24,000 nucleotides of DNA, taken from Chloroflexota bacterium (GTDB taxonomy: Bacteria > Chloroflexota > Dehalococcoidia > Lucifugimonadales > GCA-2712585). The translations under genes and the position numbers were made by a program. Of the stretch, positions 1 to 18,776 are shown piece after piece (within the stretch, counting starts at the first letter, position 1; each line of letters begins with the position of its first letter). Under the pieces are notes generated by a model. It saw nothing but the letters and a program-made list of their open reading frames with translations, ran no database searches and was not told the DNA's origin. The stretch is taken from the NCBI GenBank assembly GCA_027294635.1, contig JAPULR010000002.1:1-24000 (forward strand), in the 5' to 3' direction.

Positions 1-1
1 C

Positions 2-2159: not shown

Positions 2160-2223
2160 GATGGACACTTTTACAGAGTGGCCTATACACTGTACTTTGG
2201 AAGTCTAGGAATGGAGGCATTAA

Positions 2224-2850: not shown

Positions 2851-2895
2851 GAATCCGGTAGAGATATACCCATTGAGAATGAGAAGGATTTGATA

Positions 2896-3054
2896 ATGGG
2901 AAAAGGTTTGGTGATTGGAGCAACTGGGACCATCGAAAGATTGTTGGTCCCAAGACTGCTAGCCAGAGGGACCAAGGTTCGAGCATTCGTGTACAGAGAA
3001 TTTGGTCTCCCTGTCACATTCCTAAAGCCTACCTTCTTTAAGCAAGTCAGCTGA
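2896..3054 (+). pseudogene. Mini-ORF (52 aa) that looks like an internally deleted NmrA/atypical-SDR NAD(P)-binding gene
   Basis: MGKGLVIGATGTIERLLVPRLLARGTKVRAFVYRE resembles the Rossmann N-terminus (xLVxGATGxxGxxVVxxLLxRGxxVRAxxR), but the third Gly is Glu. It runs straight into a short tail (GLPVTFLKPTFF) and stops. Its TGA overlaps the next ATG (TGATG at 3052-3056). Confidence 0.4.
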
Positions 3055-4223: not shown

Positions 4224-4304
4224 GCTCAATGGTGTCGCCTGCCCAATCCGACTCTTAATAATTCGCTCTTACCAATGTCTTTTAACACGAAGTAATATTG
4301 AATT

Positions 4305-5162
4305 ATGCGATTTGAAGTTACCCATCTCACGAAGTTCATTTACAGTCGTCCCGTTTTCTTAGAACCCCATGAGGTAAGATTGCGGCCACGATGTGATAGT
4401 TGGCAAAATCTTCTTAGCTTCAAAATACATGTCGATCCATCACCAGCTGGCATAACTCATAACATTGATCTCCATAATAACTCTTCCACTCGAATGTGGT
4501 TTAACGGAACCCATAAATCTCTCATCATTACAACCGCCTTTAGTGTGGAGACTCTACGAACAGACCCTTTCGATTTCATTGTTGATTCTCAGGCTCTTGT
4601 ATTACCCGTAAACTATTCTGATGAAGACTCTGACTCCTTGGCCCCTTTCCGAGAAGTTTCAAACTTTTCTGTTGATGTAAAGAATCTAGCTAAGTCCATC
4701 TCCAACGATGCTAAAAATGAAACGCTCGCATTTCTTGTGTCTCTAAACCAGCGAATTCACGAGACAATTGAGCCTATATTTCGCGCTGTAGGTGATCCAT
4801 GGCCTGCATCGACGACACTTGAAAAAAGGAAAGGTTCTTGCCGAGATCAGTCGGTTCTTTTCATTGCTGTCTGCCGAACTGTTGGATTGGCGGCGCGATT
4901 TGTCAGTGGTTATCAGGAAGGCGACTATCAGCGAGCGAAGCGAGAATTACATGCATGGGCAGAAGTATATCTGCCTGGAGCTGGTTGGCGCGGCTATGAT
5001 CCAATGAGCGGACTAGTAATTTCCGACCGTCACGTTGCGGTCGCTTCGGGACACATCCCAAGCGCCGCAGCCCCGACATCCGGTACATTCCGGGGCACAA
5101 ACGTGGAATCTACTATGCGCACACAAATCGACATCGAAGTTCAGCCTGTCCGCCAAGTCTAA
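4305..5162 (+). CDS. Transglutaminase-family protein (Bact_transglu_N plus transglutaminase core)
   Basis: N-terminus MRFEVTHLTKFIYSRPVFLEPHEVRLRPR is typical of the bacterial N-terminal domain. Catalytic triad context GSCRDQSVLFIAVCRTVGLAARFVSGY (Cys), HAWAEVYLPGAGWRGYDP (His, Asp). Confidence 0.85.
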   Translation: MRFEVTHLTKFIYSRPVFLEPHEVRLRPRCDSWQNLLSFKIHVDPSPAGITHNIDLHNNSSTRMWFNGTHKSLIITTAFSVETLRTDPFDFIVDSQALVLPVNYSDEDSDSLAPFREVSNFSVDVKNLAKSISNDAKNETLAFLVSLNQRIHETIEPIFRAVGDPWPASTTLEKRKGSCRDQSVLFIAVCRTVGLAARFVSGYQEGDYQRAKRELHAWAEVYLPGAGWRGYDPMSGLVISDRHVAVASGHIPSAAAPTSGTFRGTNVESTMRTQIDIEVQPVRQV

Positions 5163-5177
5163 GGTACGACTGTAGAT

Positions 5178-5206
5178 TTGACATTTCACTGTAGCAGTGA
5201 TAATTT
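5178..5206 (+). promoter_or_regulatory. Candidate sigma70-type promoter upstream of paralog C
   Basis: TTGACA (5178-5183), 17-nt spacer ending in TGa, TAATTT (5201-5206). About 125 nt upstream of ATG 5332. Confidence 0.35.
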
Positions 5207-5331
5207 CCAACGGCTGTCATCCAATGATACTTGGTGCATCCAATAGCTCAGTAGCTAAAAGGATTGACGGGCAGAATTTAAGAGTAATCTGAGATCGGAA
5301 ATCTTGGGAAACCGAACAAAGGAGAGTCGCA

Positions 5332-5946
5332 ATGGACAACGGGGCAATTTGTTTTTCGAGAAGCATGTCATCGGGAGGGGAAGAGATCGCTAGCATCGTT
5401 GCAGAAAAGATGAGCTATCGCTATGTAGACGATAATATTATCACCATAGCGGCAGAAAAAGGGGGAGTCACTCCGGAAACGATTGGGAAAGTTGAACGTT
5501 CTAGCGAGATGATTAACCGCATCCTTGGATATATGTCCCATGATACTGGGAGATCCAACCATTTCACGAGCATCCGGATGGGTCAGTCAGAGGAATACCG
5601 ACAATTGATCCAAGAAGTGGTCGTTGAAACTGCCAAATCAGGGAAGGTCGTAATCGTTGCTCATGGCGCTGCCATCCCGCTAGCAGATATGGCTCGCGTT
5701 TTGCGGGTATTTGTTACTGCCTCTCAATCGAACCGAACCAAACGACACATGAGCACATCGAACGTGGATGAGCAAAAAGCAAGGGAAGATATCGCTGCCT
5801 CTGATCGCCAACGTGCGGAGTACTTTCGAAACTTCTACGATATCAATCTAGAACTACCGACTCATTACGACATAGTACTGAACACTGACCACATTACACC
5901 GTCAGTTGCTGCAGATGTAGTGGTAAGTGCCGCCAGGGGGATGTAG
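5332..5946 (+). CDS. Cytidylate kinase-like family protein, paralog C
   Basis: SD aaaGGAGAg 8 nt upstream of the ATG. ICFSRSMSSGGEEIASIVAEKMSYRYVDDNII...VVIVAHGAAIPLA...ELPTHYDIVLNTDHITPSVAADVV. 111/120 nt identical between 5701-5820 and 12447-12566 (hand alignment). Confidence 0.85.
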   Translation: MDNGAICFSRSMSSGGEEIASIVAEKMSYRYVDDNIITIAAEKGGVTPETIGKVERSSEMINRILGYMSHDTGRSNHFTSIRMGQSEEYRQLIQEVVVETAKSGKVVIVAHGAAIPLADMARVLRVFVTASQSNRTKRHMSTSNVDEQKAREDIAASDRQRAEYFRNFYDINLELPTHYDIVLNTDHITPSVAADVVVSAARGM

Positions 5947-6066
5947 GACTCCTCATAGTTGAGGATATGTAACCCAGCACATCAAAAACCGACAGGGGCC
6001 TCAGGCAGATCTTTCGGAAGCAGCGGCATCCGAATTGCGAGTTGTTGCAGGGGGCGGAGGACTTTG

Positions 6067-6411
6067 CTAAAGTGATTTTGCTCCACGTTCGGCAGTATCG
6101 ATACGAACCGCATCTAATATCCGGCTTACAAAAATTCGGCCGTCACCTGCTTTGCCCGTTGCTGCAGAGTCTATAATGAAACCTATCACCTTATCAGTGT
6201 CCTCGTCCGAGACCACGATTTCCAATTTTATTTTGGAAAGAGTAGGATCTACATAGGTCCCGGTGCCTCGGCTGGACGTCCTACTAGAGCCCGGGTTATC
6301 TCCTTGACCTAAGATACGAGTCACAGTCATCCCTTTAAACCCAGCATCGTTCAGAGCTATTTGAACACTAGTTAATTTCTCCGGTCTAATGATAGCTTCT
6401 ATCTTATTCAC
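6067..6411 (-). CDS. P-II family nitrogen-regulatory protein (GlnB/GlnK-like) with a non-canonical, longer T-loop
   Basis: GTG start with AGGAGG 5 nt upstream. MNKIEAIIRPEKL...GMTVT...KIKLEIVV...TGKAGDGRIFV...RIDT matches the P-II core and B-loop. The T-loop reads GQGDNPGSSRTSSRGTGTYVD in place of the GFGRQKGHTELYRGAEY consensus. Confidence 0.85.
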   Translation of the reverse strand: MNKIEAIIRPEKLTSVQIALNDAGFKGMTVTRILGQGDNPGSSRTSSRGTGTYVDPTLSKIKLEIVVSDEDTDKVIGFIIDSAATGKAGDGRIFVSRILDAVRIDTAERGAKSL

Positions 6412-6704
6412 GGAAACCTCCTATCGTCGCCACTTAAGACCGTGCTCAATCCAGAAATTTGCCTTTTAGATCTCAACTTTTCAAACGTATACGGAAGGCT
6501 CCAGCCCTTATGGTAGCTCAGAAGTCAATATAAGGCTTCCTTTGTTGATCTGCAAGTTGGTTGATCTCCCGCAATAAAGTCGTATGCGCCTCCGAATAGG
6601 TTAGGCCGGTTTTTACTCGAACCCAATAGCCTGCGCAGTATTCAACAATCGTGCGTTAAGATTGTGCCGTCATGAACCAACTTTGACCGACTAACTATCA
6701 CAAA

Positions 6705-6733
6705 TTGCCAGCGAAATCTATTTTCATTATAAT
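6705..6733 (+). promoter_or_regulatory. Candidate sigma70-type promoter for the GSII gene
   Basis: TTGCCA (6705-6710), exactly 17 nt spacer, TATAAT (6728-6733). Downstream SD AGGAGGAGG (6753-6761) and ATG at 6770. Confidence 0.5.
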
Positions 6734-6769
6734 CCCCTATGTTCAAGTTAATAGGAGGAGGTTATCTAG

Positions 6770-7783
6770 ATGGATGTTCGGAGAGCTGAATACATATGGA
6801 TAGATGGAACCACACCTACGGCTAAACTCAGATCAAAGACAAAAATAATCCCATTGGATGAAGACCCGCCTATTTGGGGGTTTGATGGTTCGAGTACAAA
6901 TCAGGCCCCGGGGAACCGATCTGATTGTGTTTTGAGGCCGGTATTCAACTGTCCTGATCCCACGAGGAAAGATCCTAATGGGCTGCTGGTGATGACGGAA
7001 GTGCTGCTGCCCGAGATGACACCGCATTCAACCAACACGCGGGCTGCTTGCGAGGCGGCATCCAAGACCTATGCTGAGATGGAAACTGTTTTCGGCATTG
7101 AACAGGAATACACTTTCTTCAGAGGTATGAGGCCACTTGGATTTCCTGAACACGGATTCCCTCCTCCGCAGGGCGGGTACTACTGCGGTGTCGGTGCAGA
7201 CGAGGTTTTTGGTCGTGATGCTGTAGAGGCCCATTTAGACGCATGTCTCAGAGCTGGGCTTAAGATATTCGGCATCAACGCTGAGGTGATGCCAGGACAG
7301 TGGGAATTTCAGATTGGTACTTTGCCGGCTCTAGATGTTTCTGACCAACTATGGGTAGCCAGGTGGCTTCTATATAGAGTTTCGGAAGAATTTGGGATCA
7401 ACGCTACTTTGTACCCCAAACCTGCTCGGGGCGACTGGAACGGAGCAGGCGCCCATACTAATTTCTCTACTAGGAAAATGCGCTCTAGCTACGAAGCATG
7501 CATCGATGCTGCTGAAGCCCTTGGGAAAACACACGATTTGCACATCGAGAATTACGGATTCGGAATAGAGGAGAGGCTGACGGGTCTGCATGAAACCAGT
7601 TCGTACAAGGAATTCCGATATGGGGTTTCAGATCGTGGCGCCTCCATCCGTATCCCTTGGCAGGTGGAGGTTGAAGGCAGGGGCTATATAGAAGATCGTC
7701 GTCCCAATGCAAATATGGATCCCTACGTAGTCACACGCCTGATATTAGAGACGATCGGTACTCATTCCAAAATCGCAGCTTAA
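6770..7783 (+). CDS. glnII: Glutamine synthetase type II (eukaryote-like GSII)
   Basis: AEYIWIDGTTPTAKLRSKTKII N-terminus, GIEQEYTFF, GQWEFQIG, and KPARGDWNGAGAHTNFST (ATP-binding signature). The 337-aa length fits bacterial GSII, not the roughly 470-aa GSI. Confidence 0.9.
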   Translation: MDVRRAEYIWIDGTTPTAKLRSKTKIIPLDEDPPIWGFDGSSTNQAPGNRSDCVLRPVFNCPDPTRKDPNGLLVMTEVLLPEMTPHSTNTRAACEAASKTYAEMETVFGIEQEYTFFRGMRPLGFPEHGFPPPQGGYYCGVGADEVFGRDAVEAHLDACLRAGLKIFGINAEVMPGQWEFQIGTLPALDVSDQLWVARWLLYRVSEEFGINATLYPKPARGDWNGAGAHTNFSTRKMRSSYEACIDAAEALGKTHDLHIENYGFGIEERLTGLHETSSYKEFRYGVSDRGASIRIPWQVEVEGRGYIEDRRPNANMDPYVVTRLILETIGTHSKIAA

Positions 7784-7861
7784 CTGTCGACTACGTATCC
7801 CGGCTGAAACAATCTTGGCTGAATGAGATTAGCCCTGCTGTTATCTGGTAAGTGACCCTAC

Positions 7862-7900
7862 AAACCATTGGCGCTCTAATTAGAGCGCCAATGGTTTTAT
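7862..7900. terminator. Bidirectional rho-independent terminator between convergent glnII and the MBL hydrolase gene
   Basis: 36-nt perfect palindrome AAACCATTGGCGCTCTAA|TTAGAGCGCCAATGGTTT (7862-7897), followed by a T run on the + strand (GGTTTTAT). Confidence 0.7.
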
Positions 7901-8012
7901 AACTATCGGATGATCATCTGTCCTAAGAATTAAGATTTCAAGTCTTACCAACCCAAACTGATTGTATTGGACCGAATTGATAACCCGCAATATCCATGGG
8001 TCTAGAAAACCG

Positions 8013-8819
8013 CTATCCCTTGGGCGCATCGTGGGAAAGGGCGGTAGGTTGCTCACGAACAACTTTATACGTTTTACCTGGAATTGCCAATTCACATGCC
8101 CCGGAAAACTCTTTTGCTACTTCCGTTAATATTTGATCAGGGTCATGACTTTCCCAAATGTGAGTGACTAGCAAGTTACCCACATTCGCATTGGCAGCTG
8201 CGGCGCCTGCTTCCCTACCGGTCATGTGTCCCCGTTGGGCTGAGTTCTTTGGGCTGGTTATCCCATCACCTGCTTCACATAGGAAAAGACTGGATTCATT
8301 TGCGATAGAGATTAGAGGTTCGCACAGGCTAGAGTCTGCAGAGTAACACAACGAGCCAGCGTCATTTTCAATGCGCATTGCAAACGTGGGAATGAAGTGT
8401 TGTACCTGTTGAAATTTGATCTGGAGCCCTGGCAGACAAAGAACCGTCCCCGCCGTATATTCCTCCACATCATAAGCGTCTAGGGGATACCCCATGGACA
8501 ATTCGTCTAAAAACTTTAATAGTTGGGTGCGAGTATCGGGAGGAGTCCATACTTTAAATGGGGTGTTTGCATGGGTGACAGGAGATAGCTTTAGAAGATA
8601 GCTTAGTGGGACTAGGCCAAGCCAATGATCTATGTGCAGGTGGGATATCACTATACCAGAGAGTTCTGGCAGTGATTTTCTGAATTCAGGTGTCGCCACT
8701 ACACCAGGACCAATGTCCAGGACTACTGAGGTATCTCCTCCTTTGACTAGATAGCCGGATGACGCCCCTCCAGGGTTGGGGCATACGGGGCCGTTTCCGA
8801 GGATGGTAAGTTCCAACAT
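8013..8819 (-). CDS. MBL-fold metallo-hydrolase (Lactamase_B_2 / RNase Z-PhnP-like)
   Basis: HxHxDH motif in VISHLHIDHWLGLVPL and a C-terminal GHMTGREAG...LLVTHI motif. The start is moved to the second ATG (8819, MLELTILGNG...) because GGAGG sits 5 nt upstream of it. The ORF-track start at 8834 lacks an SD. Confidence 0.8.
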   Translation of the reverse strand: MLELTILGNGPVCPNPGGASSGYLVKGGDTSVVLDIGPGVVATPEFRKSLPELSGIVISHLHIDHWLGLVPLSYLLKLSPVTHANTPFKVWTPPDTRTQLLKFLDELSMGYPLDAYDVEEYTAGTVLCLPGLQIKFQQVQHFIPTFAMRIENDAGSLCYSADSSLCEPLISIANESSLFLCEAGDGITSPKNSAQRGHMTGREAGAAAANANVGNLLVTHIWESHDPDQILTEVAKEFSGACELAIPGKTYKVVREQPTALSHDAPKG

Positions 8820-8968
8820 CAACACCTCCGTCATTGTTTTATTATGTCCCTTTCACGCTGGGCAAGCCCCCCATTTTTAATCGACCGATCCATCTGCGGC
8901 AGTAGGGAACCGCTCGCCTTTGAGAAGCCCCCGCTGTAGAATTATGAATATGATTCAGGAGATGTAAA

Positions 8969-10891
8969 GTGGTTCAAGCCGACGAGCGATCACAACTGCT
9001 ACGAGAAGTTGAACTTTTCCGAGATATCGATGCCTCCGAGTTACAGTTAATCGTCCAACAGATGAAAGAGGAGTCCTATGCGGACCGACAGGTGGTCTTC
9101 CGTGAAGGGGATCCCGGCGACAGGTTGTTCATTCTACTCGAAGGCACTATGCACATATACGTCAATCGGGAAAACCAGGTCATCACCTATAACAGGCTTC
9201 AAGCAGGAGAGTGTTTTGGTGAGATGGCCCTTATCGAGAATACTCCCCGGTCGGCGACTGTCCAGGCAGAGGCACCCTCGAAGTGCCTCACATTATCTCG
9301 CCAGGGTTTTCTGGACCTGCTGAGTAACCACCCTCTCGTTGTCCTTAGACTGATGCGGGTTTTGGTTCCTCGACTTCGAAGTACAAACGTTCAGCTCCAA
9401 AATTATGCCACTCGGCGACGAGCCGGATCAGATAGTGCCCGGGTCGCCATGAACTTTTTGAATTACGAAACAGAGGGGTTCTTTGACGAAATGCTCGACG
9501 AAAGCGGTCGACCTCGCGACGCCGCAGCCCTCCTAATGCAACGCATTACTAACCTGCCAGAAGGCGAATTACAAGATCGGCAACAAGCAGCTGAACAAGC
9601 ACTACTAAACCTGGGTATCACATTTAACGTATACGGCGATGAATCCGGAACGGAGAAGATATTTCCTTTCGACATAATACCAAGGATCGTTGGGGCCAGT
9701 GACTGGAATTACATAGAGAAGGGATTAAAGCAGCGCATTCAAGCCCTAAACCTGTTTATAGATGATCTGTACCACTCTCAGAAGATTGTGAAAGACGGTA
9801 TCGTGCCAGAGCACCTGATTCAATCCGCTCAAAACTTGTTGCTACCTTGTGAGGGACTCAATCCACCAAAAGGCATCTGGTGTCATATCACTGGTACCGA
9901 CATAGTACGAGACGGGGATGGTCAATTATATGTTCTGGAAGACAACCTACGCTGCCCCTCAGGGGTCTCTTATGTCCTGGAAAACCGCCAGGTCCTAAAG
10001 GCTACATTCCCGCAAGTATTTGAGGCGTCTAAAGTTAGACCAGTTGACGATTATCCAAGCCGTCTGCTGGAAACCTTACAAAGTATTGCTCCAGAGGGTT
10101 CTGAATCACCTACGATCGTCTTGTTAACGCCAGGCACCTATAACTCTGCCTATTTCGAGCACGCATTTTTAGCTCAGCAAATGGGCATTGAACTGGTGCA
10201 AGGAAGCGATCTAATGGTAGTCGACGGTTATGTCAACATGCGCACCACTCATGGTCTTGAACAGGTGGACGTCATATATAGACGGATTGATGATGATTTT
10301 CTTGACCCTCAAATATTCAACCCAGAGTCTCAACTTGGTGTCCCAGGGTTGATAGATGTATATAGGGCTGGTCGGGTAGCGCTCGCAAATGCACCGGGAA
10401 CGGGAGTAGCTGATGACAAGGCCGTATACACCTACGTTCCGCAAATGATCAAATATTACCTGGACCAGGATATGATTTTGCCTAACGTTCCTACATACAT
10501 CTGTTGGGACGACAAACAGCGAGAACATGTCCTGGCCAATCTGGACAAGCTAGTGGTGAAGGTAACCAATGAATCAGGTGGCTACGGGATGCTTATTGGT
10601 CCACACTCCACCACTAAGGAGCAGGAACTATTCGCCGAACGTATAAAGGCTAATCCACGGAACTACATCGCGCAGCCGACCCTAGCCCTTTCCAGAGCCC
10701 CAGTAATCGTCGACGGCAAATTCGAAGGCCGTCACGTCGATTTACGTCCTTACATTCTATATGGATCGGACATCTATGTTCTCCCTGGCGGTCTAACGCG
10801 GGTTGCACTAAAGAAGGGCTCGCTGGTAGTTAATTCTTCACAGGGTGGCGGCAGCAAGGATACGTGGGTAATCGCGGAGGAACCACAATAA
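8969..10891 (+). CDS. Fusion protein: N-terminal cyclic-nucleotide-binding domain plus circularly permuted type-2 ATP-grasp (amidoligase-like) protein
   Basis: GTG start with AGGAGA 6 nt upstream. Residues 1 to about 140 form a CNB fold with the phosphate-binding cassette [18 protein letters not shown] (nt 9215-9268). From Met161 (ATG 9449) [15 protein letters not shown]...[26 protein letters not shown]...[21 protein letters not shown] matches the usual N-terminus and body of stand-alone CP ATP-grasp type-2 proteins (about 480 aa). Confidence 0.85.
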
Positions 10892-11871
10892 TGTTAAGCA
10901 GAGTTGCTGATTCAATATACTGGATGAATCGATACCTAGAACGGGCCGAGAACGTCGCCCGATTTGTTGACGTGAATCTAAACCTGCTGCTCGACCTGCC
11001 TGGATCTGCGGATGAACAGTGGGAGCCGTTAGTTCAGACTACAGGCGATGAATTGCTATTTCGGGAGAGGTTTGGTCAGGCTACCCAAGAGAATGTACTA
11101 GCTTTTTTAACATTTGATGCCGGTAATCCCAACTCTGTCTTTTCGTGTCTGGGTGCTGCGCGCGAAAATGCTCGATCAGTCCGCGAAACTATTTCTTCAG
11201 AAATGTGGGAACAGATAAACAAATTCTACCTTATGGTTAGGTCTGCCGCCGCCGCAGGAGGTGTTTTAGAAAATCCTCACAACTTTTATACTGATGTCAA
11301 AATGGCATCCCACTTATTCATGGGGATAACAGATGCCACCATGTCACATGGCGAAGCCTGGCACTTCGGACGTCTTGGAACTCTCCTTGAGCGGGCCGAC
11401 AAAACATCGCGAATGCTAGACGTCAAGTACTTCGTCCTTCTTCCCAGTGTGACGGATGTAGGTACCTCAATCGACGATATCCAGTGGTCTGCAGTGCTAA
11501 AATCAACTAGCGCATTTGAAATGTATCGGAAGCGTCATGGGCGCCTAGCGCCAGATCTTGTAGCCGATTTTTTGATCCTTGATAAAGAATTCCCACGATC
11601 CATCCGTTCCTGTGTGGTCAACGCTGAGGAATCTTTACACACCATCGGAGGCTCACCAATGAGCGCTTTCAATAACGTTGCCGAGCGGAGCCTCGGACGA
11701 ATTCGGTCAGAATTAGATTATGCCCAGATACAGGAAATTATTACAGGCGGTCTGCACGAATTTCACGTAGAGTTACGAAGCAAGCTATTTTCGGTCGGCA
11801 ATGACGTTTTTGACACCTTTTTCGCGACACGGTCTTCCCTGAATTCTTTGACTCCTATCACAGAATGTTGA
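10891..11871 (+). CDS. Alpha-E domain protein (usual partner of CP ATP-grasp type-2)
   Basis: [25 protein letters not shown] is the family's characteristic N-terminus. ATG 10891 overlaps the upstream TAA (TAATG), implying translational coupling. The ORF-track GTG at 10864 would overlap the ATP-grasp gene by 28 nt and is not favoured. Confidence 0.85.
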   Translation: MLSRVADSIYWMNRYLERAENVARFVDVNLNLLLDLPGSADEQWEPLVQTTGDELLFRERFGQATQENVLAFLTFDAGNPNSVFSCLGAARENARSVRETISSEMWEQINKFYLMVRSAAAAGGVLENPHNFYTDVKMASHLFMGITDATMSHGEAWHFGRLGTLLERADKTSRMLDVKYFVLLPSVTDVGTSIDDIQWSAVLKSTSAFEMYRKRHGRLAPDLVADFLILDKEFPRSIRSCVVNAEESLHTIGGSPMSAFNNVAERSLGRIRSELDYAQIQEIITGGLHEFHVELRSKLFSVGNDVFDTFFATRSSLNSLTPITEC

Positions 11872-11995
11872 CAGATCCACTCCAAAGCAATTGACGAAGT
11901 CTGTGGCCGTTAGCATTACGTCATCGAGTTTCCAACAATCGTTTACCTTTTGTCTCTTGCCGTACGGAAGAACCTATTAGTCGATTTATTGAAGG

Positions 11996-12024
11996 TTGGA
12001 TGACCTAGATACCGTAGATATTAA
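11996..12024 (+). promoter_or_regulatory. Candidate sigma70-type promoter upstream of paralog D
   Basis: TTGGAT (11996-12001), 17-nt spacer, TATTAA (12019-12024). SD aaGGAGa at 12043-12049 and ATG at 12057. Confidence 0.4.
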
Positions 12025-12056
12025 AATCTTCGATAGCCGAACAAGGAGATGTAGCG

Positions 12057-12731
12057 ATGGATACCAGGGTAATTTGCTTTTCAAGAAGCATGTCCGGTGG
12101 GGGAGATGAAATCGCTCGCAAGGTTGCAGATAAGATCCGTTTTCGCTATGTGGACGATGAGATCATCATCACGGCGGCAGAAAAAGAGGGAGTCTCTCCG
12201 ATAATGATTGGGAAGGTTGAACGTTCTAGCCCGATCATAGACCGTATCCTTGGATCCATGTCTTATAACAATCCCAAACAAGAGGAGAAAGGTGGGGGAT
12301 CCTATCAAATTACGAGTTCCAAACTGAGTCAGTCAGAGGGATACCGACAAATAATCCAAGATGTGATCGTTGAAACTGCCAAAATGGGTAAGGTCGTAAT
12401 CGTTGCGCATGGTGCAGCGATCCCCTTATCAGAGATGAGCGGGGTTTTGCGGGTATTTGTTACCGCCTCTCAATCGAACCGGACCAAACGACACATGAGC
12501 ACATCGAACTTGGATGAGCAAAAAGCGAGGGAAGATATCGTTGCCTCCGATCGTCAACGTACGGACTACTTTCGAAAATTTTACCATATCGATCAGGAAC
12601 TACCGACTCATTACGACATAGTATTGAACACTGACCACCTCACTCCTTCAATTGCTGTAGATGTGATAGTTAGAATCGCGAAGAAACTGAAGACAGACAT
12701 GTATGAACCCGCCCAAGACGAAAGAGGGTAG
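12057..12731 (+). CDS. Cytidylate kinase-like family protein, paralog D (longer central loop and C-terminal tail)
   Basis: ICFSRSMSGGGDEIARKVADKIRFRYVDDEII...VVIVAHGAAIPLS...ELPTHYDIVLNTDHLTPSIAVDVI. It shares about 30 nt of the upstream RBS region (ccgaacaaGGAGa) with paralog C. Confidence 0.85.
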   Translation: MDTRVICFSRSMSGGGDEIARKVADKIRFRYVDDEIIITAAEKEGVSPIMIGKVERSSPIIDRILGSMSYNNPKQEEKGGGSYQITSSKLSQSEGYRQIIQDVIVETAKMGKVVIVAHGAAIPLSEMSGVLRVFVTASQSNRTKRHMSTSNLDEQKAREDIVASDRQRTDYFRKFYHIDQELPTHYDIVLNTDHLTPSIAVDVIVRIAKKLKTDMYEPAQDERG

Positions 12732-12875
12732 CCAATAACTTTCAATAACATTGCTGCCCCGATCGGGAAATACGGCTAATTTATCGAATCACCTCAAGAA
12801 TTCGAACCAAGAAACTATCGTAGGACCTAGTTGTTGTACCGATTTGCCCCCCCCAGGAAGGATTAATCATGCTAA

Positions 12876-13115
12876 AGCGCCGCCGCTGGATTCAATCTGG
12901 GCCTGCTGCTGGAGGACGCCGGAGACGCCGACAAAGCGGCCCGGGCCAGAGGAAGAAAAGGTGGCCGGCCCAAGCGGCTCGATGAGAAGAAGAGGAAACT
13001 GGCTGTAGAGATGTACCGGGAACGTAAGCACTCTATCGAGGAGATCTGCGACATGATGGAGATTACAAAGCCAACGCTATACAGGTATATTCGAGAGGCA
13101 GGTAGCTTAACATAA
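12876..13115 (+). pseudogene. 3' remnant of a serine recombinase (resolvase/invertase): linker plus HTH_7 domain only
   Basis: The frame ending at TAA 13113-13115 reads ...AARARGRKGGRPKRLDEKKRKLAVEMYRERKHSIEEICDMMEITKPTLYRYIREAG, the classic resolvase linker and C-terminal HTH. Upstream it degenerates (AAAGFNLGLLLEDAGDADK versus the expected AEFERxLIxERTxAGL) and hits stops at 12864-66 and 12873-75. No catalytic domain; the only nearby ATG (12869) is in another frame. Confidence 0.65.
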
Positions 13116-13763
13116 CTGCGCCTTTTGTCTCGTTTGAACAAATGAAAGCAGCCGGGGAACCTCAGCTTCGGATTGATCGACCTTCCACTAAAGAATCCGA
13201 CTGCCTTGCGCAGAAGCGCATCACAAATCAGTCCTGGCCTTTGCCAAAGGCTGGGGTCCGGCATCGCAGCGTTCTTCCTAGCTGTGGTCTACCTGGTTAG
13301 GCCCCAGGCCCTAGAGGAGCCGCCTTGTCTCTCCTCCAAGCTCAGATCGCAGGTTCCTCTAGCTAATTCACCCGAAGGTGTCACCCTAGCTAGAACTTAC
13401 CCAGATAGGCTTTCCTGTAGAATCCCCGCGCCTTGAACCTCGGTTCAACTACAGTTCCACCTACCCGAGCCTCCAATTGGCATTTGGAGTCGTACTCAGC
13501 GGAGACCGGGTGAGGAGAAAACAGTTGCGAGAATAGTTTCTCCACAACGGTCCCTCCTTCTCCCTGAACCTGATTTACGAAAGGTCACGTCGTAGTGCAG
13601 GTATCTTCTATTTTATCATCATCGGACGATCTGTGATCTATAAGAGTCTCTGATGGTCGATTTTTGGGAGATCCCCCTGAAAACCGGCTACTCAGAAGCC
13701 CGTACAGCCTTTCTCTGAATGCCGGCCGACCAAGGGGTAAACTACTTTTGTTGCCGTTAGCCA

Positions 13764-13794
13764 GTTGACAAGAATCGCCACCTATGGGATGAGG
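13764..13794 (+). repeat. 31-nt direct repeat copy R1 (GTTGACAAGAAT-N6-CTATGGGATGAGG)
   Basis: 28/31 identical to 14368-14398. Contains a TTGACA hexamer. Followed by a hairpin rather than a gene. Confidence 0.8.
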
Positions 13795-13827
13795 AATAAA
13801 GAACGGACGGTGATCAGTCCGCCGTCC
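13791..13827 (-). terminator. Hairpin terminator candidate downstream of the 13862..14203 gene
   Basis: Stem 13805-13812 (GGACGGTG) pairs with 13820-13827 (CGCCGTCC) including one G-U pair, with a 7-nt loop. On the minus strand it is followed by GTTCTTTATTCC. It sits 35 nt past the stop codon. Confidence 0.45.
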
Positions 13828-13861
13828 ACTCTTTCTTGCTCCAGGAGCCTGGGATAGAGCC

Positions 13862-14203
13862 CTATCCGCTCCCGCTTTGCAGGTAAAGCTCAGGCATGGG
13901 TCCAGGCGGAGGGGCACTTACATCCAACCCGTGGATCTCTTTCACCTTACCGGCAAACCACAGGTCGAACGGAACAGTTGAGGAACTCAGCTTTGCCATG
14001 ACGTCATCTGCCCCAGGCCCTTCTTGTAGCACAACCACGACTGGTCCCATCGGCGTCTCGGCAAGCCATGCGTCGTGCCGAGTCAGGCGATACCTCTGGT
14101 TGTAGCTGTTAAGCTCTGATTGGCGGGGCCCTTTAAGCTCAGAGGCCCACGCCTTCCAAGCCTCAAGCTTCCCTTCGACGATTGGAGCTACGATTATTCC
14201 CAT
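13862..14203 (-). CDS. Small conserved-looking hypothetical protein (113 aa)
   Basis: Start moved to ATG 14203 (MGIIVAPIVEGKLEAWKAW...) because GGAGGG lies 5 nt upstream. The ORF-track start at 14248 has no SD. High-GC codon usage with a clean ORF; I cannot name a family with confidence. Confidence 0.55.
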   Translation of the reverse strand: MGIIVAPIVEGKLEAWKAWASELKGPRQSELNSYNQRYRLTRHDAWLAETPMGPVVVVLQEGPGADDVMAKLSSSTVPFDLWFAGKVKEIHGLDVSAPPPGPMPELYLQSGSG

Positions 14204-14367
14204 GATTACCCTCCTATATGGTGGGATATGGGGGGCATGATCCCACACCGGGCTCCCCAGGTCAATAAGCGTGCAGTGGGTGGATGATCACAAGCCGATC
14301 ACCTTTCCGACGAGGAACGCCAGGCCGCCGTCGGTCGTCGCCCCGCCCGTGAGGGCTCCCGTAGCGG

Positions 14368-14398
14368 GTTGACAAGAATTGGCAGCTATGGGATGAGG
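14368..14398 (+). repeat. 31-nt direct repeat copy R2; probable promoter/operator of the primase-finger stub
   Basis: GTTGACAAGAATTGGCAGCTATGGGATGAGG, ending 30 nt upstream of ATG 14428, with the strong SD AAAGGAGGGGG between them. Confidence 0.8.
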
Positions 14399-14427
14399 GA
14401 GGTAGCACAAAATGAAAGGAGGGGGTC

Positions 14428-14676
14428 ATGGCTCAAACTCAATGGGTTTCATTCCAAGAGCTGAAAGAAAAGATCTCGATGTCGGATCTGCTGGCGTACT
14501 ATGGTCTCCTTGCCTCTCTCCAACCCCGGCGCGACGGGGAGGAGCTGGTGGGGTTGTGTCCCTTCCACCAGGAGACCCGGGGATCCTTCCACGTGTCAAC
14601 GGTCAAGAATGCCTGGAACTGCTTTGGTTGCCAAATGAAAGGCAACATCCATGATCCCCGAAACGTAGATTGTTGA
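14428..14676 (+). pseudogene. Truncated DNA primase: CHC2 zinc-finger domain only (phage/plasmid-type)
   Basis: GLCPFHQETRGSFHVSTVKNAWNCFGCQMKGNI matches the zf-CHC2 pattern CPFHxExxPSFxV...CFGCxxxG. The ORF stops 9 codons after the motif, with no TOPRIM or helicase-binding part downstream. Confidence 0.55.
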
Positions 14677-14876
14677 CTCTAGAGAGGGATTGTCTGAAAA
14701 CGATACCTGGAAGTCTTCAATCACGAGGGGTGATAATTGGGATATCGAGAGGTGGACTTGCCGGCGCTCCTTGGCAAACCCAACCCTATACGTTTTCACT
14801 GAAATCTCCTTTTTTCCAAATAATTATGTACCTTTGAGTCAAAACTAGGCACGAATAATTTTGACTGTAGAACAAA

Positions 14877-15157
14877 GTGCTGGAAAAGAGCTTTGAAGTG
14901 GGCCCCGCCGTGGCGCGAAACGACCTTCTGTGCTGTGACCGGTTCGACGTTATGGACCGGGTACACGAAATCCCTCTGTCTTCCCTGGTTATCTGCGGCA
15001 CTGAGGACATCATGACCCCGGTCAAGTACGCGAACTACCTGGCGGAAAGGATACCAAGGTCGCAAAGGTGCTGGTGGAGGGTGGAACCCACTACGTCCAC
15101 CTGGAGCACCCAGGGGTGGTGAATCGGGCCATCAGCCGGTTTCTTGCCGCCCTCTAG
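14877..15157 (+). pseudogene. C-terminal remnant of an alpha/beta-hydrolase, 5'-truncated and frameshifted
   Basis: ...CDRFDVMDRVHEIPLSSLVICGTEDIMTPVKYANYLAERIP is the typical region before the catalytic His. After about 15056-15064 the homologous reading continues in another frame (AKVLVEGGTHYVHLEHPGVVNRAISRFLAAL, stop TAG 15155-15157). An in-frame TAG at 14868-14870 removes everything upstream, including the nucleophile elbow. Confidence 0.65.
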
Positions 15158-15187
15158 CAGCGACGCAGGTTTCCACCTAAGAAAGGG

Positions 15188-15709
15188 TCAGGGCTTCTCG
15201 TTTAGGCCCAGGTTGGTGAACTGGCTTTCGTAGAACAGTAGCGGCTTTCCCGAGCCGCCCAGCGAAATTTCGTCAACCTCTCCGATGTAGATGGTGTGGT
15301 CACCGTGGACGTGGGAATCCACGACGCGGCAGCCGAAAAATGCCAGGGAACCTTCAATAACCGGCAGACCCTTCTCACTCAGGCGGTGCTGGTAAGGCAC
15401 CTCGCCATGCCGGTCCTCGGGGGGGCGGGCAAAGTAGGCCCCAATATCCTTCTGCTGCTCGCTGAGGATGTTGACGCCAAAGGAGCCACTGGATTCCACG
15501 AAACGGTGGGTATGGGTGCGAAAGTCCACGCAGACCAGTACCAGGGGGGGCGCAAGGCAGACGGAGGTGAAGGAGTTGGCGGTCATGCCATGCAGGGCGC
15601 CCTGATGGTCCAGTGTTGTCACCACGGTTACTCCCGTAGCGAACTTGGCCAGGCTGTTTCTAAACTCGTCTTTGGTGACCACCAAACCCCTCGGCGCCGA
15701 TGTTGACAC
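15188..15709 (-). CDS. Flavin reductase-like FMN-binding split-barrel protein (HpaC/NAD(P)H-flavin oxidoreductase family)
   Basis: FRNSLAKFATGVTVVTTLDHQGALHGMTANSFTSVCLAPPLVLVCVD is the family core. The GTG 15709 start lacks an SD; a start about 9 codons downstream (TTG/GTG after GAGGGG) is possible. Confidence 0.8.
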   Translation of the reverse strand: MSTSAPRGLVVTKDEFRNSLAKFATGVTVVTTLDHQGALHGMTANSFTSVCLAPPLVLVCVDFRTHTHRFVESSGSFGVNILSEQQKDIGAYFARPPEDRHGEVPYQHRLSEKGLPVIEGSLAFFGCRVVDSHVHGDHTIYIGEVDEISLGGSGKPLLFYESQFTNLGLNEKP

Positions 15710-15810
15710 CTATTCTTGTATCCGATGCCGTCATGTGTCAACCGAGCGTGTTGCATATTTCCTAGGGGGGCTGCGGTAAAATGGCCGTATCACCTTTAGG
15801 AGGAGAGCCC

Positions 15811-16515
15811 GTGACGATAGTTGCCTTGCTTAAGGAATCTGATGATATTTTCTATCTTGGTGCCGATTCCCAATGGACAGACTCGGTGGGCACGAAGACC
15901 TTTAAGACTAAAATTACAGTCCTAAACGGCAAGGGGAATATTGTTGCTTGGGCAACGGCGGGGAACCCCCAAATAGGCGTAGCGGAGTTTGGTAATTGGG
16001 CCAAGAATTATCAGCGCACAGAAACGACGACATGGGAATCGTTTATTACGGATGCAGCAGGAGAGTTTGCACGGCTGAATCGTATTAAGAAAGAGATAGG
16101 AGAGAAAGCTGGGCAGGATATCAACGCCTCCGCTTTTAAACGGGAGCACCTTTGTGAAATGTTAATTTGTGGTTGGCTAAACCATAGAAGTGCTGGTTAT
16201 TTCGTTGGGGACGATGGGAATTATCAGAGCTTGGACCTTCTCGGCATGATGACGATTGGCACAGGTGGCCCATTCGCAGATGCAGTCTATAAGACTAGTC
16301 TCTACTTTCAAAAGAAGTTGGACTTAACTATTCATCAGGCTTTCCAGCACTTGATGGAGATTACATCACGCTATGCTGACCGATGTAGTCTCCCGTATGA
16401 ATTTGTCAAAATCTCTGAAGGGAAACGGGAACTGTTTCGGTCGAAGGAACCTGAGCCTGGTGTAGAGGAAATAAAGCCTGCAAAGCCAGAAGGGAAAGGT
16501 AGCAGTGAGTCGTAA
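15811..16515 (+). CDS. Stand-alone proteasome beta-subunit-like Ntn hydrolase (Anbu/BPH-like candidate)
   Basis: GTG 15811 has AGGAGG (15798-15803) 7 nt upstream and yields Met-Thr-Ile-Val-Ala-Leu-Leu. After Met removal: Thr1, GADS (Asp18), FKTKITVL (Lys31/33), ATAGNPQIG, IGTGGPFA (Ser129 position is Thr) and YADRCS (Asp-x-x-Ser). This spacing parallels 20S beta catalytic residues T1/D17/K33/S129/D166/S169. The C-terminal tail is low-complexity (KEPEPGVEEIKPAKPEGKGSSES). Confidence 0.7.
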   Translation: MTIVALLKESDDIFYLGADSQWTDSVGTKTFKTKITVLNGKGNIVAWATAGNPQIGVAEFGNWAKNYQRTETTTWESFITDAAGEFARLNRIKKEIGEKAGQDINASAFKREHLCEMLICGWLNHRSAGYFVGDDGNYQSLDLLGMMTIGTGGPFADAVYKTSLYFQKKLDLTIHQAFQHLMEITSRYADRCSLPYEFVKISEGKRELFRSKEPEPGVEEIKPAKPEGKGSSES

Positions 16516-16610
16516 CCTTACGCAGACTGCGCACAGTAACCTTGTTCAAGGAGCGTTGACCTTTAAGCCTGGAAAAGCATTTCTCGACTGCCGGTCACTG
16601 TCAGTAAGCC

Positions 16611-18776
16611 TCACCATCCGGGAATCACACGCTTCAGGAACTGAGGCGACCACCAGTTCCAGCGGTCCATAATCCGCATCAGCGCCGGGACCAGGAAGGC
16701 CCGAACCACCGTAGCATCCAATAGTATCGCAATGGCGGTCCCCACACCCAGAGCCTTGACTATGACTATGTCGGCGGTGGCGAAGGCGGCGGCCACCAGC
16801 ACCAGGATCAGAGCGCCGCTGGTTATGATGGGGCCGGTAATCTCCATCCCCTGGGCCACGCTCTGTTCGTTATCCCCGGTGGAATCGTAGACCTCCTTGA
16901 TTCGGCTGAGGAGGAATATCTCGTAGTCCATGCTGAGGCCAAAAATGATGGCGAACAGCAGTATGGGAATGGTGGCCTCGGTGACCCCCTCGGTGGTGAA
17001 GCCCAACAAGCCCTGGAAATGCCCCTGCTGGAAGATGAAGACAAGGGCGCCGTAGCTGGCGAAGATGCTCATCAGGTTCATTATTGTGGCCTTCAGGGGT
17101 AGCAGTACCGATCGGAACAGGACGAAGAGGGCAATGTAAACGGTGACCACCACAAAGATGATGGCGATTGGGAAGGCGCTGTACATTACGTCGATGGAGT
17201 CCATCAGATCGGCGGTGGCGCCCGTTACCATCAGGGAGAAGTCCTGCCCCGGGTCGAAGGAGCGAATTTGGCGGACCAGGTCCCGCGACTCATCCGCCAC
17301 CGGAGTAAACCGGCTGAAGACTCGAATCACCGTTGTGTCTCCGCTGAGGTACTTCTCGACGGCTTCATCGGATGGGAACCCGCTGGGCCGGGTGCCGCCG
17401 TCGGAGAGGTTGGGGGAGATCAGGCTTTCTACCCTGTCCACACTTGGGTCGTTTTGGAGTGTATCGACAAGACTGCGGAGCCGTGTCGTGTTTTCCTCGG
17501 TTAAAGTGTCTCCTGAAAACTGGGCCGCTATGACTATGGGGGCGATAGCTCCCGGCCCCATCCGCTCCGATACTACGTCCCATCCTCGTCTGGAAGGTAC
17601 GTCCTCAGGCAGAACCGTAGCCCAGACTGAGCCCAGGTTCACACCCAGAAAAGGTATACCCAGAGCTACGAGGAAAACCAGCAAGGGTATGGCCACAACC
17701 AAAGGACGCCGCATCACCCCGAGGGCGAGGCGGCGCCATAATCCCCTACCAACGCCGCGGTTGGGGAGGACTGGTTGTGCGTTCACCCTATCGCCTACCA
17801 CCGCCAGAATGGCGGGCAGCAGCGTAAGGGCCACCAGGAGGGAGATCATGATGACCATCACCCCACCCAGGCCCAGGGAGCGGAGCATCATGAAATCGAA
17901 CAAAAGCAGGGAAGACAGTCCCAGCATGGAGGTAAGTCCGGAAAAGAGGATGGTCTTTCCTGAGGTGGCCAGGGTGTGGGCCACGGCTTCCTTCTTTGGG
18001 TGCCGGTTTATCTCTTCCCTGAACCGGCTTACCACCAGCAGGGAATAGTCCACCGCTACCCCCAAGCCCAGGAAGGAGACTATGTTTAGCGCGAATATGG
18101 ACACGTCTGTTACCTGGGCCACGAAAAAGAGGAGAGCCAAAGCCGCCGATACACTTATGGCCCCAACGGCGACGGGGATGCTGGCGGCCACCAGCCCGCG
18201 GAAGACGAAGACGAGGGCAACCAGGACCAGGGGGATGGCTATGATTTCGCCCCGCCGCAGGTCCCGCTCCGAGGCTTTATTTATGTCGGAAAAGATGGCG
18301 ACACCCCCCGTGGTCCACACCTCCAGGTCACCTTCCCCCAGGGAATCTTCCAACTGTGGAAAGGACTCAATAGCCTCATCAATAGATAATCGCAGGGGCA
18401 CCAGAGCGAAGGTAGTTTTCCCGTCGGGGGACACCTGGGAAGGCGTCCCACCGTCGTAGAAGGTCGTGATTTCGCCCACGTCTGGTCGCCCTCTAAGAGG
18501 GGTGAGGACCTTCTCCATCTCGGCTCTATAAGCAGGGTCCTCCGTGGTTATTAACGGGCTCGAGAAGACGACGATTAGGGTTGATTCGGAGGTCCCAAAC
18601 CGGTCTTCCAGAAGGTCAAGAGCACGGCGGGACTCGGTGTCTATATCGCCAAAGCCGCCCTTGAGCTGGGAGGCGACACGGGGTAGGACGGACAGCGAGA
18701 GGAGAAAGACGAGGGCCCAGGCGATGATAATGGGCCAGCGGTACTTGGCCGAGAAAATACCCAGGCGGTAAAACAC
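16611..18776 (-). CDS. MMPL-family (RND superfamily) membrane transporter
   Basis: 721 aa. N-terminus MFYRLGIFSAKYRWPIIIAWALVFLL, two blocks of TM helices each followed by an extracytoplasmic domain, and DYSLLVVSRFREE / MDYEIFLLSRIKE motifs typical of MMPL proteins. Confidence 0.9.
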   Translation of the reverse strand: MFYRLGIFSAKYRWPIIIAWALVFLLSLSVLPRVASQLKGGFGDIDTESRRALDLLEDRFGTSESTLIVVFSSPLITTEDPAYRAEMEKVLTPLRGRPDVGEITTFYDGGTPSQVSPDGKTTFALVPLRLSIDEAIESFPQLEDSLGEGDLEVWTTGGVAIFSDINKASERDLRRGEIIAIPLVLVALVFVFRGLVAASIPVAVGAISVSAALALLFFVAQVTDVSIFALNIVSFLGLGVAVDYSLLVVSRFREEINRHPKKEAVAHTLATSGKTILFSGLTSMLGLSSLLLFDFMMLRSLGLGGVMVIMISLLVALTLLPAILAVVGDRVNAQPVLPNRGVGRGLWRRLALGVMRRPLVVAIPLLVFLVALGIPFLGVNLGSVWATVLPEDVPSRRGWDVVSERMGPGAIAPIVIAAQFSGDTLTEENTTRLRSLVDTLQNDPSVDRVESLISPNLSDGGTRPSGFPSDEAVEKYLSGDTTVIRVFSRFTPVADESRDLVRQIRSFDPGQDFSLMVTGATADLMDSIDVMYSAFPIAIIFVVVTVYIALFVLFRSVLLPLKATIMNLMSIFASYGALVFIFQQGHFQGLLGFTTEGVTEATIPILLFAIIFGLSMDYEIFLLSRIKEVYDSTGDNEQSVAQGMEITGPIITSGALILVLVAAAFATADIVIVKALGVGTAIAILLDATVVRAFLVPALMRIMDRWNWWSPQFLKRVIPGW

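Follow-up and report, generated by a model that had tools for sequence, protein, structure and literature searches.

The stretch of DNA considered here (positions 1 to 24,000 of contig JAPULR010000002.1 from a Chloroflexota bacterium, referred to below as the window) contains at 15811–16515 a reading frame whose product recalls the beta subunit of the proteasome. The question raised by this locus is whether the gene encodes an N-terminal nucleophile (Ntn) hydrolase of the proteasome type, and with which system, if any, it belongs. A previous reading made from the sequence alone (the sequence-only reading) had described an orphan proteasome-beta-like hydrolase whose start codon exposes Thr1, and had taken it for a divergent Anbu/BPH-like protease belonging, by base composition, with a low-GC ATP-grasp block 4 kb away. 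The results presented here make it likely that the window encodes a stand-alone proteasome-type Ntn hydrolase from a rare family outside the curated models, with HslV and the 20S beta subunits as its nearest relatives in sequence. We hold the reading as a whole to be equally likely, including the arrival of the gene on mobile DNA as the cargo of an insertion linked to an insertion sequence (IS).

A word-indexed search of 5.8 billion proteins returned 14 relatives, all metagenomic and unnamed, and when 1.84 billion cluster representatives were searched exhaustively with a profile, 222 clusters were matched at E ≤ 1e-3 (149 at E ≤ 1e-10). The members are nearly all metagenomic singletons. One allele (P0001) is 96% identical to the window copy, and at least one member is present in NCBI nr (TAK23879.1, a 'hypothetical protein' from a Chloroflexota metagenome-assembled genome, MAG). 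The close clade had no relatives in GTDB genomes, JGI metagenome contigs or IMG/VR, and tblastn searches of phages and plasmids gave no match, either with the window protein or with the family consensus, the latter compared with 50,697 phage and 72,556 plasmid sequences.

Translated from GTG 15811 the product begins (M)TIVALL and reads (M)TIVALLKESDDIFYLGADS...FKTKITVL...AGNPQIG...IGTGG...ADRCS, with GADS at residues 17–20, FKTKITVL at 31–38, AGNPQIG at 50–56, IGTGG at 149–153 and ADRCS at 189–193 (Met = 1). Conservation was counted in an alignment of 96 family members. The nucleophile is Thr in 94 of them and Ser in two, one of the latter being the protein of locus L021 (10001–10648, P0055), which begins Met-Ser-Val in place of Met-Thr; the Asp and the Lys are each present in 95, the oxyanion Gly of the AGN motif in 93 and the first Gly of G(S/T)G in 95. 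The near-invariant positions are Thr2, Asp19, Lys34, Trp47, Gly51, Phe60, Trp63, Trp75, Asn90, Gly121, Gly136, Gly150, Cys192 and Pro195 in the same numbering; if Thr is taken as residue 1, the Lys falls at exactly 33 and the Asp at 18. The catalytic set is preserved among members that are just 20–30% identical.

The profile of the 96 members found the beta1 subunit among the PDB sequences (E = 1.8e-9), together with HslV of several species (4.9e-9 to 4e-5), and the alignments to HslV and the 20S beta subunits (E = 1.8e-9 to 1e-6) bring Thr1, Asp17, Lys33 and the G-S-G motif into register. The profile of the close clade had given sub-significant PDB matches to beta5 (E ~0.1) in which the register was already correct. 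No Anbu or BPH chain appeared among the 60 PDB matches listed for the family profile (103 in total at E ≤ 1). Matches to curated models were weak. The Pfam Proteasome model (PF00227) was matched by 27 of the 96 members, all below the gathering score, the NCBIfam HslV models NF003964 and TIGR03692 by 26 and 21 (best E = 1.7e-8, below the cut-offs), and the NCBIfam archaeal beta model by 16. A match of the window protein to TelK_stirrup (E = 0.13) was dismissed as noise. These alignments strongly support a complete predicted catalytic set, namely Thr1, Asp18 (equivalent to Asp17), Lys33, Gly50 (Gly47) and Thr150 (Ser129), with a Cys191 peculiar to the family at the site of Ser169.

The AlphaFold2 model, calculated from the close-clade alignment (mean predicted local distance difference test score, pLDDT, of 86 and predicted template-modelling score, pTM, of 0.84), shows a four-layer alpha-beta-beta-alpha sandwich with the elements in the order known from proteasome subunits (S1–S5, H1, H2, S6–S9, H3, H4, S10 and S11). 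The final strands span residues 196–202 and 205–210 and no long C-terminal helix follows; pLDDT falls to 60 at residues 211–220 and below 50 at 218–234. A Foldseek search of the PDB with this model returned 1026 matches at E ≤ 1e-3, the top 50 of which are all proteasome subunits or Anbu (probability 1.00, E of about 1e-8 to 1e-9). The best TM-scores were obtained with Anbu 5nyw (0.62–0.67, at 14–16% identity), and proteasome-like proteins of phages in BFVD score comparably. The predicted structure thus strongly supports the proteasome alpha-beta-beta-alpha fold. The sequence-only reading had pointed to motifs recurring at the spacing of the proteasome catalytic residues and had proposed profile searches and a fold search for the beta-like Ntn hydrolase that it saw in them. 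The motifs and their spacing are borne out by the 96-member conservation and the in-register alignments, and the hydrolase assignment by the fold search and the family profile; the profile search succeeded with the family, which matches beta1 and HslV, and failed with the window protein alone, which matches no model.

Two in-frame codons compete as the start of this protein. An ATG at 15781–15783 is followed by AGGAGG at 15798–15803, by seven bases (15804–15810), by GTG at 15811–15813 and by the ACG codon of Thr at 15814–15816, the stop codon being at 16513–16515; the 7-nt spacing claimed earlier can be read directly from the letters. The residue ahead of Thr is Met in 72, Leu in 14 and Val in 10 of the 96 aligned members, and in the 11 loci for which DNA could be inspected the corresponding codon is always a start codon: GTG in the window and L007, TTG in L001, L002 and L005, and ATG in L003, L010, L019, L021, L025 and L026. 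For the five loci without ATG the probability of finding a start codon there by chance is about 3e-4 to 2e-3. As this residue is always Met, Val or Leu and its codon a start codon, a start without propeptide is supported. A GGAGG motif stands 6–9 nt 5' of the start in the close loci. Its conservation is at the DNA level: because the motif occupies different codon phases, the residues that it would specify vary from locus to locus (LGG, WRV, RRA, WGG, REV). Of the family members, 51 were called from the codon directly before Thr, and the remainder carry extensions of 9–30 residues whose ends resemble a translated Shine-Dalgarno site (…KEPPMT).

Initiation at ATG 15781, with a 10-residue propeptide (MAVSPLGGEPV) removed autocatalytically before Thr as in the 20S beta subunits, would account for the invariance of this ATG, 30 nt upstream of the GTG, across six close loci, for the G-rich stretch 8–13 nt ahead of it and for the 10-residue extension called in 9 of the 96 members. 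It leaves unexplained why the residue at −1 is solely Met, Val or Leu and its codon solely ATG, GTG or TTG, why the supposed propeptide is unconserved whereas GGAGG is kept, and why 51 members have no extension while the others vary in length. The ATG also overlaps a −10-like hexamer in every locus (TAAAAT, TAGAAT or TAAGAT), and proteasome beta propeptides normally end with Gly at −1. We regard this longer form as distinctly unlikely. Of the two candidates, GTG 15811 behind its putative AGGAGG Shine-Dalgarno site is by far the better supported. It puts Thr next to the initiator Met, as the sequence-only reading had proposed for a form lacking a propeptide, and the annotation should place the start codon there.

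How the gene came to its present position could be traced in related genomes. A query of GTDB genomes with the MMPL protein led to two Dehalococcoidia MAG loci, L013 (66% identity) and L014 (58%), both with the gene order FAD-oxidase/TauE/FolB/HpcH/MMPL/flavin reductase. In both, only about 80–90 nt lie between the end of the MMPL frame and the beginning of flavin reductase, without an Ntn gene, and in global alignments solid homology with the window ends at 16614 and at 15681. This empty site indicates that the window carries an insertion of about 875 bp (approximately 15737–16613, with boundaries accurate to about ±10 nt). That the gene is foreign to the locus, and would have entered the Dehalococcoidia lineage by insertion between MMPL and flavin reductase, is strongly supported by the comparison. 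Both neighbouring genes seem to have been reshaped by the event. The −35 hexamer of a promoter-like site of the flavin reductase gene arises at the left junction of the insert, its GTCAA being the conserved left end. The MMPL frame ends, at 16611–16616, in 'PGW*' with a stop codon from the insert, while L014 reads on to 'PGWEPPT*'. Upstream alignments showed the 5' flank of the Ntn gene to be conserved in seven loci (the window, L001, L002, L003, L005, L007 and the distant L025). No intrinsic terminator and no notable flanking repeats were found around the gene, and no tRNA or Rfam family in the window. An integron cassette was considered and rejected, the 3' flank being unlike the attC core sites (RYYYAAC / GTTRRRY) when judged by eye.

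On its 3' side the gene runs into the end of an IS. A truncated DDE transposase frame on the opposite strand corresponds to residues 278–331 of the transposase encoded in L002 (76% identity, E = 1.3e-19, tblastn). The latter (2176–3171) is intact, with 331 residues, lies on the strand opposite to the Ntn gene of that locus and overlaps its last 24 codons; it matches DDE_Tnp_1 (4.8e-25) and DUF772 (1.1e-11) in Pfam and, below the NCBIfam cut-offs, IS1182 (8e-39) and IS5 (1.5e-25). The junction 'AAG/GAACCTGAGCC' ('AAG/GAACCTGAGC') is common to the window, where the IS terminus is at 16447, and to L002, L001, L005 and L007, and in L002 the stop codon of the intact transposase is located at this boundary of gene and IS. 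More distant family members finish directly after the last beta strand. On this comparison, residues 213–234 (EPEPGV…SES) are read-through into the IS end, which accounts for a tail that is conserved as nucleotides and yet disordered in the model. A docking function of the conserved tail ('SKEPEPGV..PASQ') was considered and set aside for this explanation, and these last 22 residues should not be annotated as part of the enzyme.

Shorter remnants of the transposase are found in L001, L003, L005 and L007, and an intact copy in L002 only. The window remnant, with an outer span of 16445–16618 on the minus strand, is cut at residue 278 by tblastn (about 274 by eye) and those of the other loci at 275, 292, 288, 306 and 313. 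Every truncated copy keeps fewer than 60 C-terminal codons, unlike what would be expected of random deletions. In the window, L001, L002 and L003 conservation extends about 55 nt past the stop codon of the Ntn gene, and the 3' flank (16516–16572 in the window, 1845–1946 in L025) is 68–72% identical between L025 and the window, L001 or L002, whereas the coding cores of the same pairs share 45–47% DNA identity and 32% protein identity. That the flank is better kept than the gene may be due to rapid change of the gene itself, to gene conversion, or to a function of the flank in mobility or expression.

An element of about 1.03 kb would result in L002 from the imperfect ends GAACCTGAGC / CGACCCCTGACC together with TAAG, a possible repeat of 4 bp; these were recognised by eye and went unreported by the repeat finder. 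A passenger gene lying between two IS ends is less likely, the L002 transposase extending to the IS terminus that abuts the gene. A 479-residue reading frame of the same locus (2239–3678), considered as a translationally coupled downstream partner, was rejected as not protein-like, with the DDE transposase on the opposite strand; the public gene call for it is spurious, and it is followed by a tRNA (3373–3443) and an excisionase-like HTH_17 reading frame (3663–3842). Given this tRNA and excisionase-like frame, the L002 copy sits at what appears to be a typical integration hot spot. In the proposed history the gene would have become fused at its 3' end to an IS5/IS1182-like terminus whose transposase was since deleted to 54 codons. 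The recurrence of 5' flank, gene and IS end as one low-GC islet in unrelated contexts strongly supports the view of the gene as putative mobile-DNA cargo.

The base composition agrees with a foreign origin and bears out part of what had been claimed for it. The gene has a GC content of 46.4% (0.47 at third codon positions, GC3), compared with 59.4% (GC3 0.74) for flavin reductase and 58.9% (GC3 0.73) for MMPL; the lower GC of the gene was thus correctly noted in the sequence-only reading, and the value of about 70% given there for the flanks has to be lowered to about 59%. The ATP-grasp block has a GC3 of 0.40–0.50. The close homologs are themselves low-GC islets (45–51% in surroundings of 54–64%), as are the copies in L025 (44% against 62%) and L026. 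Since the gene is low in GC wherever its close relatives occur, the composition it shares with the ATP-grasp block is not specific.

A divergent Anbu/BPH-type protease cooperating with the CP ATP-grasp, Alpha-E and transglutaminase genes of this block, as in classical Anbu operons, would fit the presence of all three genes in the window (the CP_ATPgrasp_2 domain fused to a cNMP-binding one), the similar GC3 and the top Foldseek TM-scores to Anbu. Between the Ntn gene and Alpha-E, however, lie the flavin reductase gene on the opposite strand, 2.4 kb of DNA poor in open reading frames (ORFs) and a cytidylate-kinase-like gene; the Ntn gene stands within an insertion between genes that are adjacent in related genomes; none of 13 family-member contexts contains the block genes; the model lacks the C-terminal helix of Anbu; and the significant PDB matches of the profile are to HslV and beta subunits, with Anbu and BPH missing from the 60 listed. 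With the position of the gene set by an insertion and the GC likeness nonspecific, the link to ATP-grasp is unsupported, and we consider such an operon highly improbable. Both inferences of the sequence-only reading are therefore left without support: the label 'Anbu/BPH-like', where the only Anbu-like signal is the Foldseek TM-score, and the membership of the ATP-grasp block, which is countered by the 13 contexts, the empty site and the islet composition elsewhere. The nearby ATP-grasp and Alpha-E genes are not to be annotated as an Anbu operon.

Neither a proteasome alpha subunit nor HslU or another AAA+ protein was found among all window ORFs of at least 100 residues and nine further ORFs of 80–130 residues at 12751–15122, which upholds the earlier statement that no such partner lies in the window. 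In the 13 contexts of family members no AAA+, CP ATP-grasp, Alpha-E or transglutaminase gene was seen, in agreement with tblastn searches made with the window proteins, and no alpha subunit was present in the homolog loci. What accompanies the family in several contexts (L010/L011, L005, L026, L019 and L012) is a neighbourhood rich in mobile or defence-type genes. Such neighbours raise the possibility of a sequence-specific transpeptidase, ligase or amidase of the connectase kind, or of an anti-phage or anti-defence conflict protein with one target, which would account for the fast divergence (45–47% DNA identity of the coding cores against 68–72% for the IS-derived 3' flank), and for the location on mobile DNA. 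The family's own conserved residues Trp47, Phe60, Trp63, Trp75, Asn90, Cys192 and Pro195 also speak for it. Connectase offers a precedent, as a proteasome-like fold is reportedly able to act as a ligase. The predicted structure has no connectase-like insertion over the active site, though, and the protein has no PADLOC match and no match among the sequenced phages and plasmids; the context evidence is anecdotal, with 13 loci of which several lie amid housekeeping genes. Such a role is thus rather unlikely. The mobile and defence-type neighbours and the gap in identity between flank and core are compatible with a part in genetic conflict, and neither proves one. The fuller proposal of a family outside the 27 described, carried as cargo of an IS-derived unit among Chloroflexota, acting in genetic conflict (for instance on a phage, plasmid or host target that it would cleave) and not in housekeeping proteolysis, and with its 3' segment kept for mobility or expression, is likewise improbable on balance.

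The reading preferred here is that of a Thr1 peptidase or amidase, probably ATP-independent and carried on mobile DNA. Methionine aminopeptidase, which removes the initiator Met ahead of Thr, would excise that of the nascent protein, Thr being permitted as second residue, and the free alpha-amine and hydroxyl of Thr1 would then become the nucleophile without processing of a propeptide. Thr1, Lys33 and Asp18 would act as in the proteasome, with Gly50 forming the oxyanion hole; a second shell would include Thr150 and Cys191. The predicted action needs no ATPase: the protein would assemble by itself into a ring peptidase like HslV, BPH or Anbu, or serve as a more specific amidase or ligase.

A number of points weigh against the preferred reading. 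The window protein alone has no useful match in Pfam, NCBIfam, PADLOC or PHROGs, so that the assignment depends on the family profile and the predicted structure. Cys192 (Met = 1) takes the place of Ser169 in the beta1 alignment and Asp166 has no conserved counterpart; with these two differences the active-site chemistry may depart from that of the proteasome. Clear in vitro peptidase activity is not known for Anbu or BPH. The upstream ATG and its G-rich stretch have been mentioned. The window copy lacks a recognisable second IS end. Finally, two of the seven close copies are frameshifted, L001 (9873–10579) near codon 35 and L003 (1765–2474, also L004) near codon 149, the L003 frameshift being present in two assemblies. 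These split copies are either pseudogenes or assembly errors; if real, they make the gene dispensable in some hosts.

The frameshifts, the reduction of the transposase to 54 codons, the accidental read-through that forms the C-terminus and the distribution of the members, almost all of them metagenomic singletons, are also what would be expected if the gene were the decaying, inert cargo of a dead IS, functionless in its present host. This is quite improbable, as the window copy is intact for 234 codons with every catalytic residue present, the catalytic set has been kept at 20–30% identity, which requires long-term purifying selection on the family, and promoter-like and Shine-Dalgarno signals are conserved alongside the gene. 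The positions of all features, and the contexts of the family members (loci bear the prefix L), are collected in Table 1.

Table 1. Features of the Ntn-hydrolase locus in the window and contexts of family members in other loci
Feature	Position	Strand	Remarks
Ntn-hydrolase gene	15811..16515	+	234 codons from GTG 15811
Key codons of the Ntn-hydrolase gene	Thr1 15814-15816; Asp 15865-15867; Lys33 15910-15912; oxyanion Gly 15961-15963		
Further key codons	Thr of IGTGG 16261-16263; Cys 16384-16386		Putative equivalents of Ser129 and Ser169, respectively
Inserted unit, ~875 bp	15737..16613	.	5' flank, Ntn-hydrolase gene and insertion-sequence-end fragment; absent from related genomes
Conserved 5' flank	15737..15810	+	GTCAA 15737-15741; TTGCATATTTCC 15751-15762; TAAAAT 15777-15782; AGGAGG 15798-15803
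Left side of mobile unit, opposite the IS			GTCAACCGAGCG...
Last 22 codons and stop	16447..16515	+	EPEPGVEEIKPAKPEGKGSSES; apparent read-through into IS5/IS1182-like terminus, outside the hydrolase fold
DDE transposase remnant	16445..16606	-	C-terminal 54 codons AVEKCFSRLKGQRSLNKVTVRSLRKVTTHCYLSLLALQALFPLHQAQVP; convergent with and overlapping the 3' end of the Ntn gene
Promoter-like site, flavin reductase gene	15712..15741	-	TTGACA, 18-nt spacer, AAGAAT; consensus scan, a match only, no evidence of function
CP ATP-grasp block	8969-10891; 10864-11871; 4305-5162		cNMP-binding + CP_ATPgrasp_2 fusion; Alpha-E; transglutaminase, respectively
Context, window			Between flavin reductase and MMPL
Context, L001			Near a DDE transposase
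Context, L002			IS, tRNA, HTH_17 excisionase-like gene
Context, L003			Amid metabolic genes
Context, L005			End of a primase-polymerase/DUF3987 block
Context, L007			Adjoins SSB gene
Context, L010 and L011			Integrative element: relaxase, Toprim primase, HicA, DUF3800, TrwB-type coupling protein, integrase
Context, L012			XRE and HicB genes
Context, L019	9840-13562		Chloroflexota MAG; ~70 nt past a tRNA; 938-residue MmeI-type restriction-modification protein, HicB-like, DUF433
Context, L021			Follows an XRE regulator
Context, L023, L024 and L025			Beside a succinate-dehydrogenase-like flavoprotein; in L025, YbeY on the other side
Context, L026			Directly 3' of terminase large subunit

Some features of the surroundings deserve mention in their own right. 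The setting of TAK23879.1 in L019 resembles a defence island. Within the window, the ATP-grasp fusion and Alpha-E genes overlap by 28 nt. The region 1–12731 has a lower GC content (GC3 0.40–0.62) and an unusual set of genes, lacks an Anbu gene and shares no synteny with L013; it encodes an adenylate/guanylate cyclase, four paralogs of the Cytidylate_kin2 family (at 1234, 2224, 5332 and 12057), a periplasmic binding protein, transglutaminase, P-II, a short GlnA-like protein and an MBL hydrolase. Further downstream, an 82-residue ORF at 14428–14676 (+) has a Pfam match (3e-15) to the CHC2 zinc finger found in primases of the DnaG type, and no other Pfam match was found in the ORF-poor 2.4 kb at 12731–15188. 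The stretch around this ORF, where synteny with L013 breaks off, looks like the remains of a mobile element.

Proteasome-type hydrolases serve as a model for the origin of self-compartmentalising proteases. Should the present family turn out to serve in conflict or to act on specific substrates, the range of functions known for the proteasome fold would grow, as it did with connectase; were it merely an ATP-independent peptidase, it would be another orphan homolog in a superfamily with many known orphans. In either case a well-supported Chloroflexota member without a database model is added to the superfamily. The survey of Fuchs, Alva and Lupas (2021) described 22 further proteasome-like families, for none of which a genomic context hinting at function was found (PMC8665760), and a search of the literature brought up no later work on these homologs. 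What is new here is the empty site, the IS fusion that forms the C-terminal tail and the conserved flanks. The empty site is direct evidence that a gene of this kind can be gained by single-gene insertion, and the IS link would be a new type of vehicle besides the phages already noted.

As to the manner of movement, ISEcp1-type mobilisation of the Ntn gene from an alternative end is suggested here as a hypothesis only, by analogy. The geometry fits an arrangement of alternative end, gene, genuine IS end and transposase, the boundary of gene and IS is identical in all close copies, and there is a loose likeness between the IS end GAACCTGAGCTTG and the left limit of homology, GTCAACCGAGCGTG, which is oriented as a surrogate end would be. 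In contrast to ISEcp1, the transposase is IS5/IS1182-like rather than of the IS1380 type, the resemblance of the ends is weak and clear in the window copy alone, and a target-site duplication of the whole unit was not seen.

Among the known proteasome-type systems, HslV (ClpQ) is the best relative of the family at the level of sequence (E = 4.9e-9 to 4e-5 for the PDB chains). Both begin with Met-Thr, lack a propeptide, use (or would use) Thr1 as nucleophile, align Asp17, Lys33, the Gly of the oxyanion hole and G-S/T-G in register and have a compact subunit without H5. The family differs from HslV in that no hslU or AAA+ gene accompanies it in the scanned window ORFs or the 13 homolog contexts, none of its members reaches the NCBIfam cut-offs and the window protein goes unmatched. 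Its domain also exceeds that of HslV by about 35 residues and includes an additional short helix (107–113) in the loop after helix 2, and the family has a Cys at the equivalent of Ser169, a Trp/Asn set of its own and carriage on mobile DNA. Anbu (5nyw, 5lox) gives the best structural superposition (TM 0.62–0.67) and is similar in its length, in Thr1 directly following Met and in having no dedicated ATPase. It is set apart by the long C-terminal coiled-coil helix H5, not present in the model of the window protein, and by its genomic partners, which in the window lie 3–4 kb off (at least 3.3 kb), past a break in synteny and across the insertion boundary, and are absent from the other contexts. 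No significant sequence match to Anbu was seen among the 60 listed PDB matches. With the 20S beta subunits (PF00227) the family shares the predicted fold and catalytic residues, beta1 being the best single PDB match (1.8e-9); here there is no alpha subunit, no propeptide with Gly(−1) and no H5, Asp166 is unconserved and the hits remain below the gathering score.

Of the 22 families of the 2021 survey, the compact group I families carried by bacteria and phages (BPH, AAH, CPH, PPH, RPC and DPH; PMC8665760) come closest. These are divergent orphans that keep Thr1, Asp17, Lys33 and Gly47 and have no propeptide, no conserved context, no AAA+ partner and no S12/H5. The survey found no informative contexts and no co-occurring AAA+ partners for the divergent homologs (PMC8665760), with which the 13 partnerless contexts reported here agree. 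Spread by phages was described for PPH and AAH, and PPH, AAH, CPH and DAH all have phage members (PMC8665760); the consensus of the present family, in contrast, is unmatched in the 50,697 phage genomes and 72,556 plasmids, and the vehicle here would be an insertion sequence, in Chloroflexota. That it constitutes a distinct family mobilised by an insertion sequence is a minority possibility. In its compact architecture and in a similarity biased towards beta subunits and HslV, the family resembles group I as described in the survey (PMC8665760).

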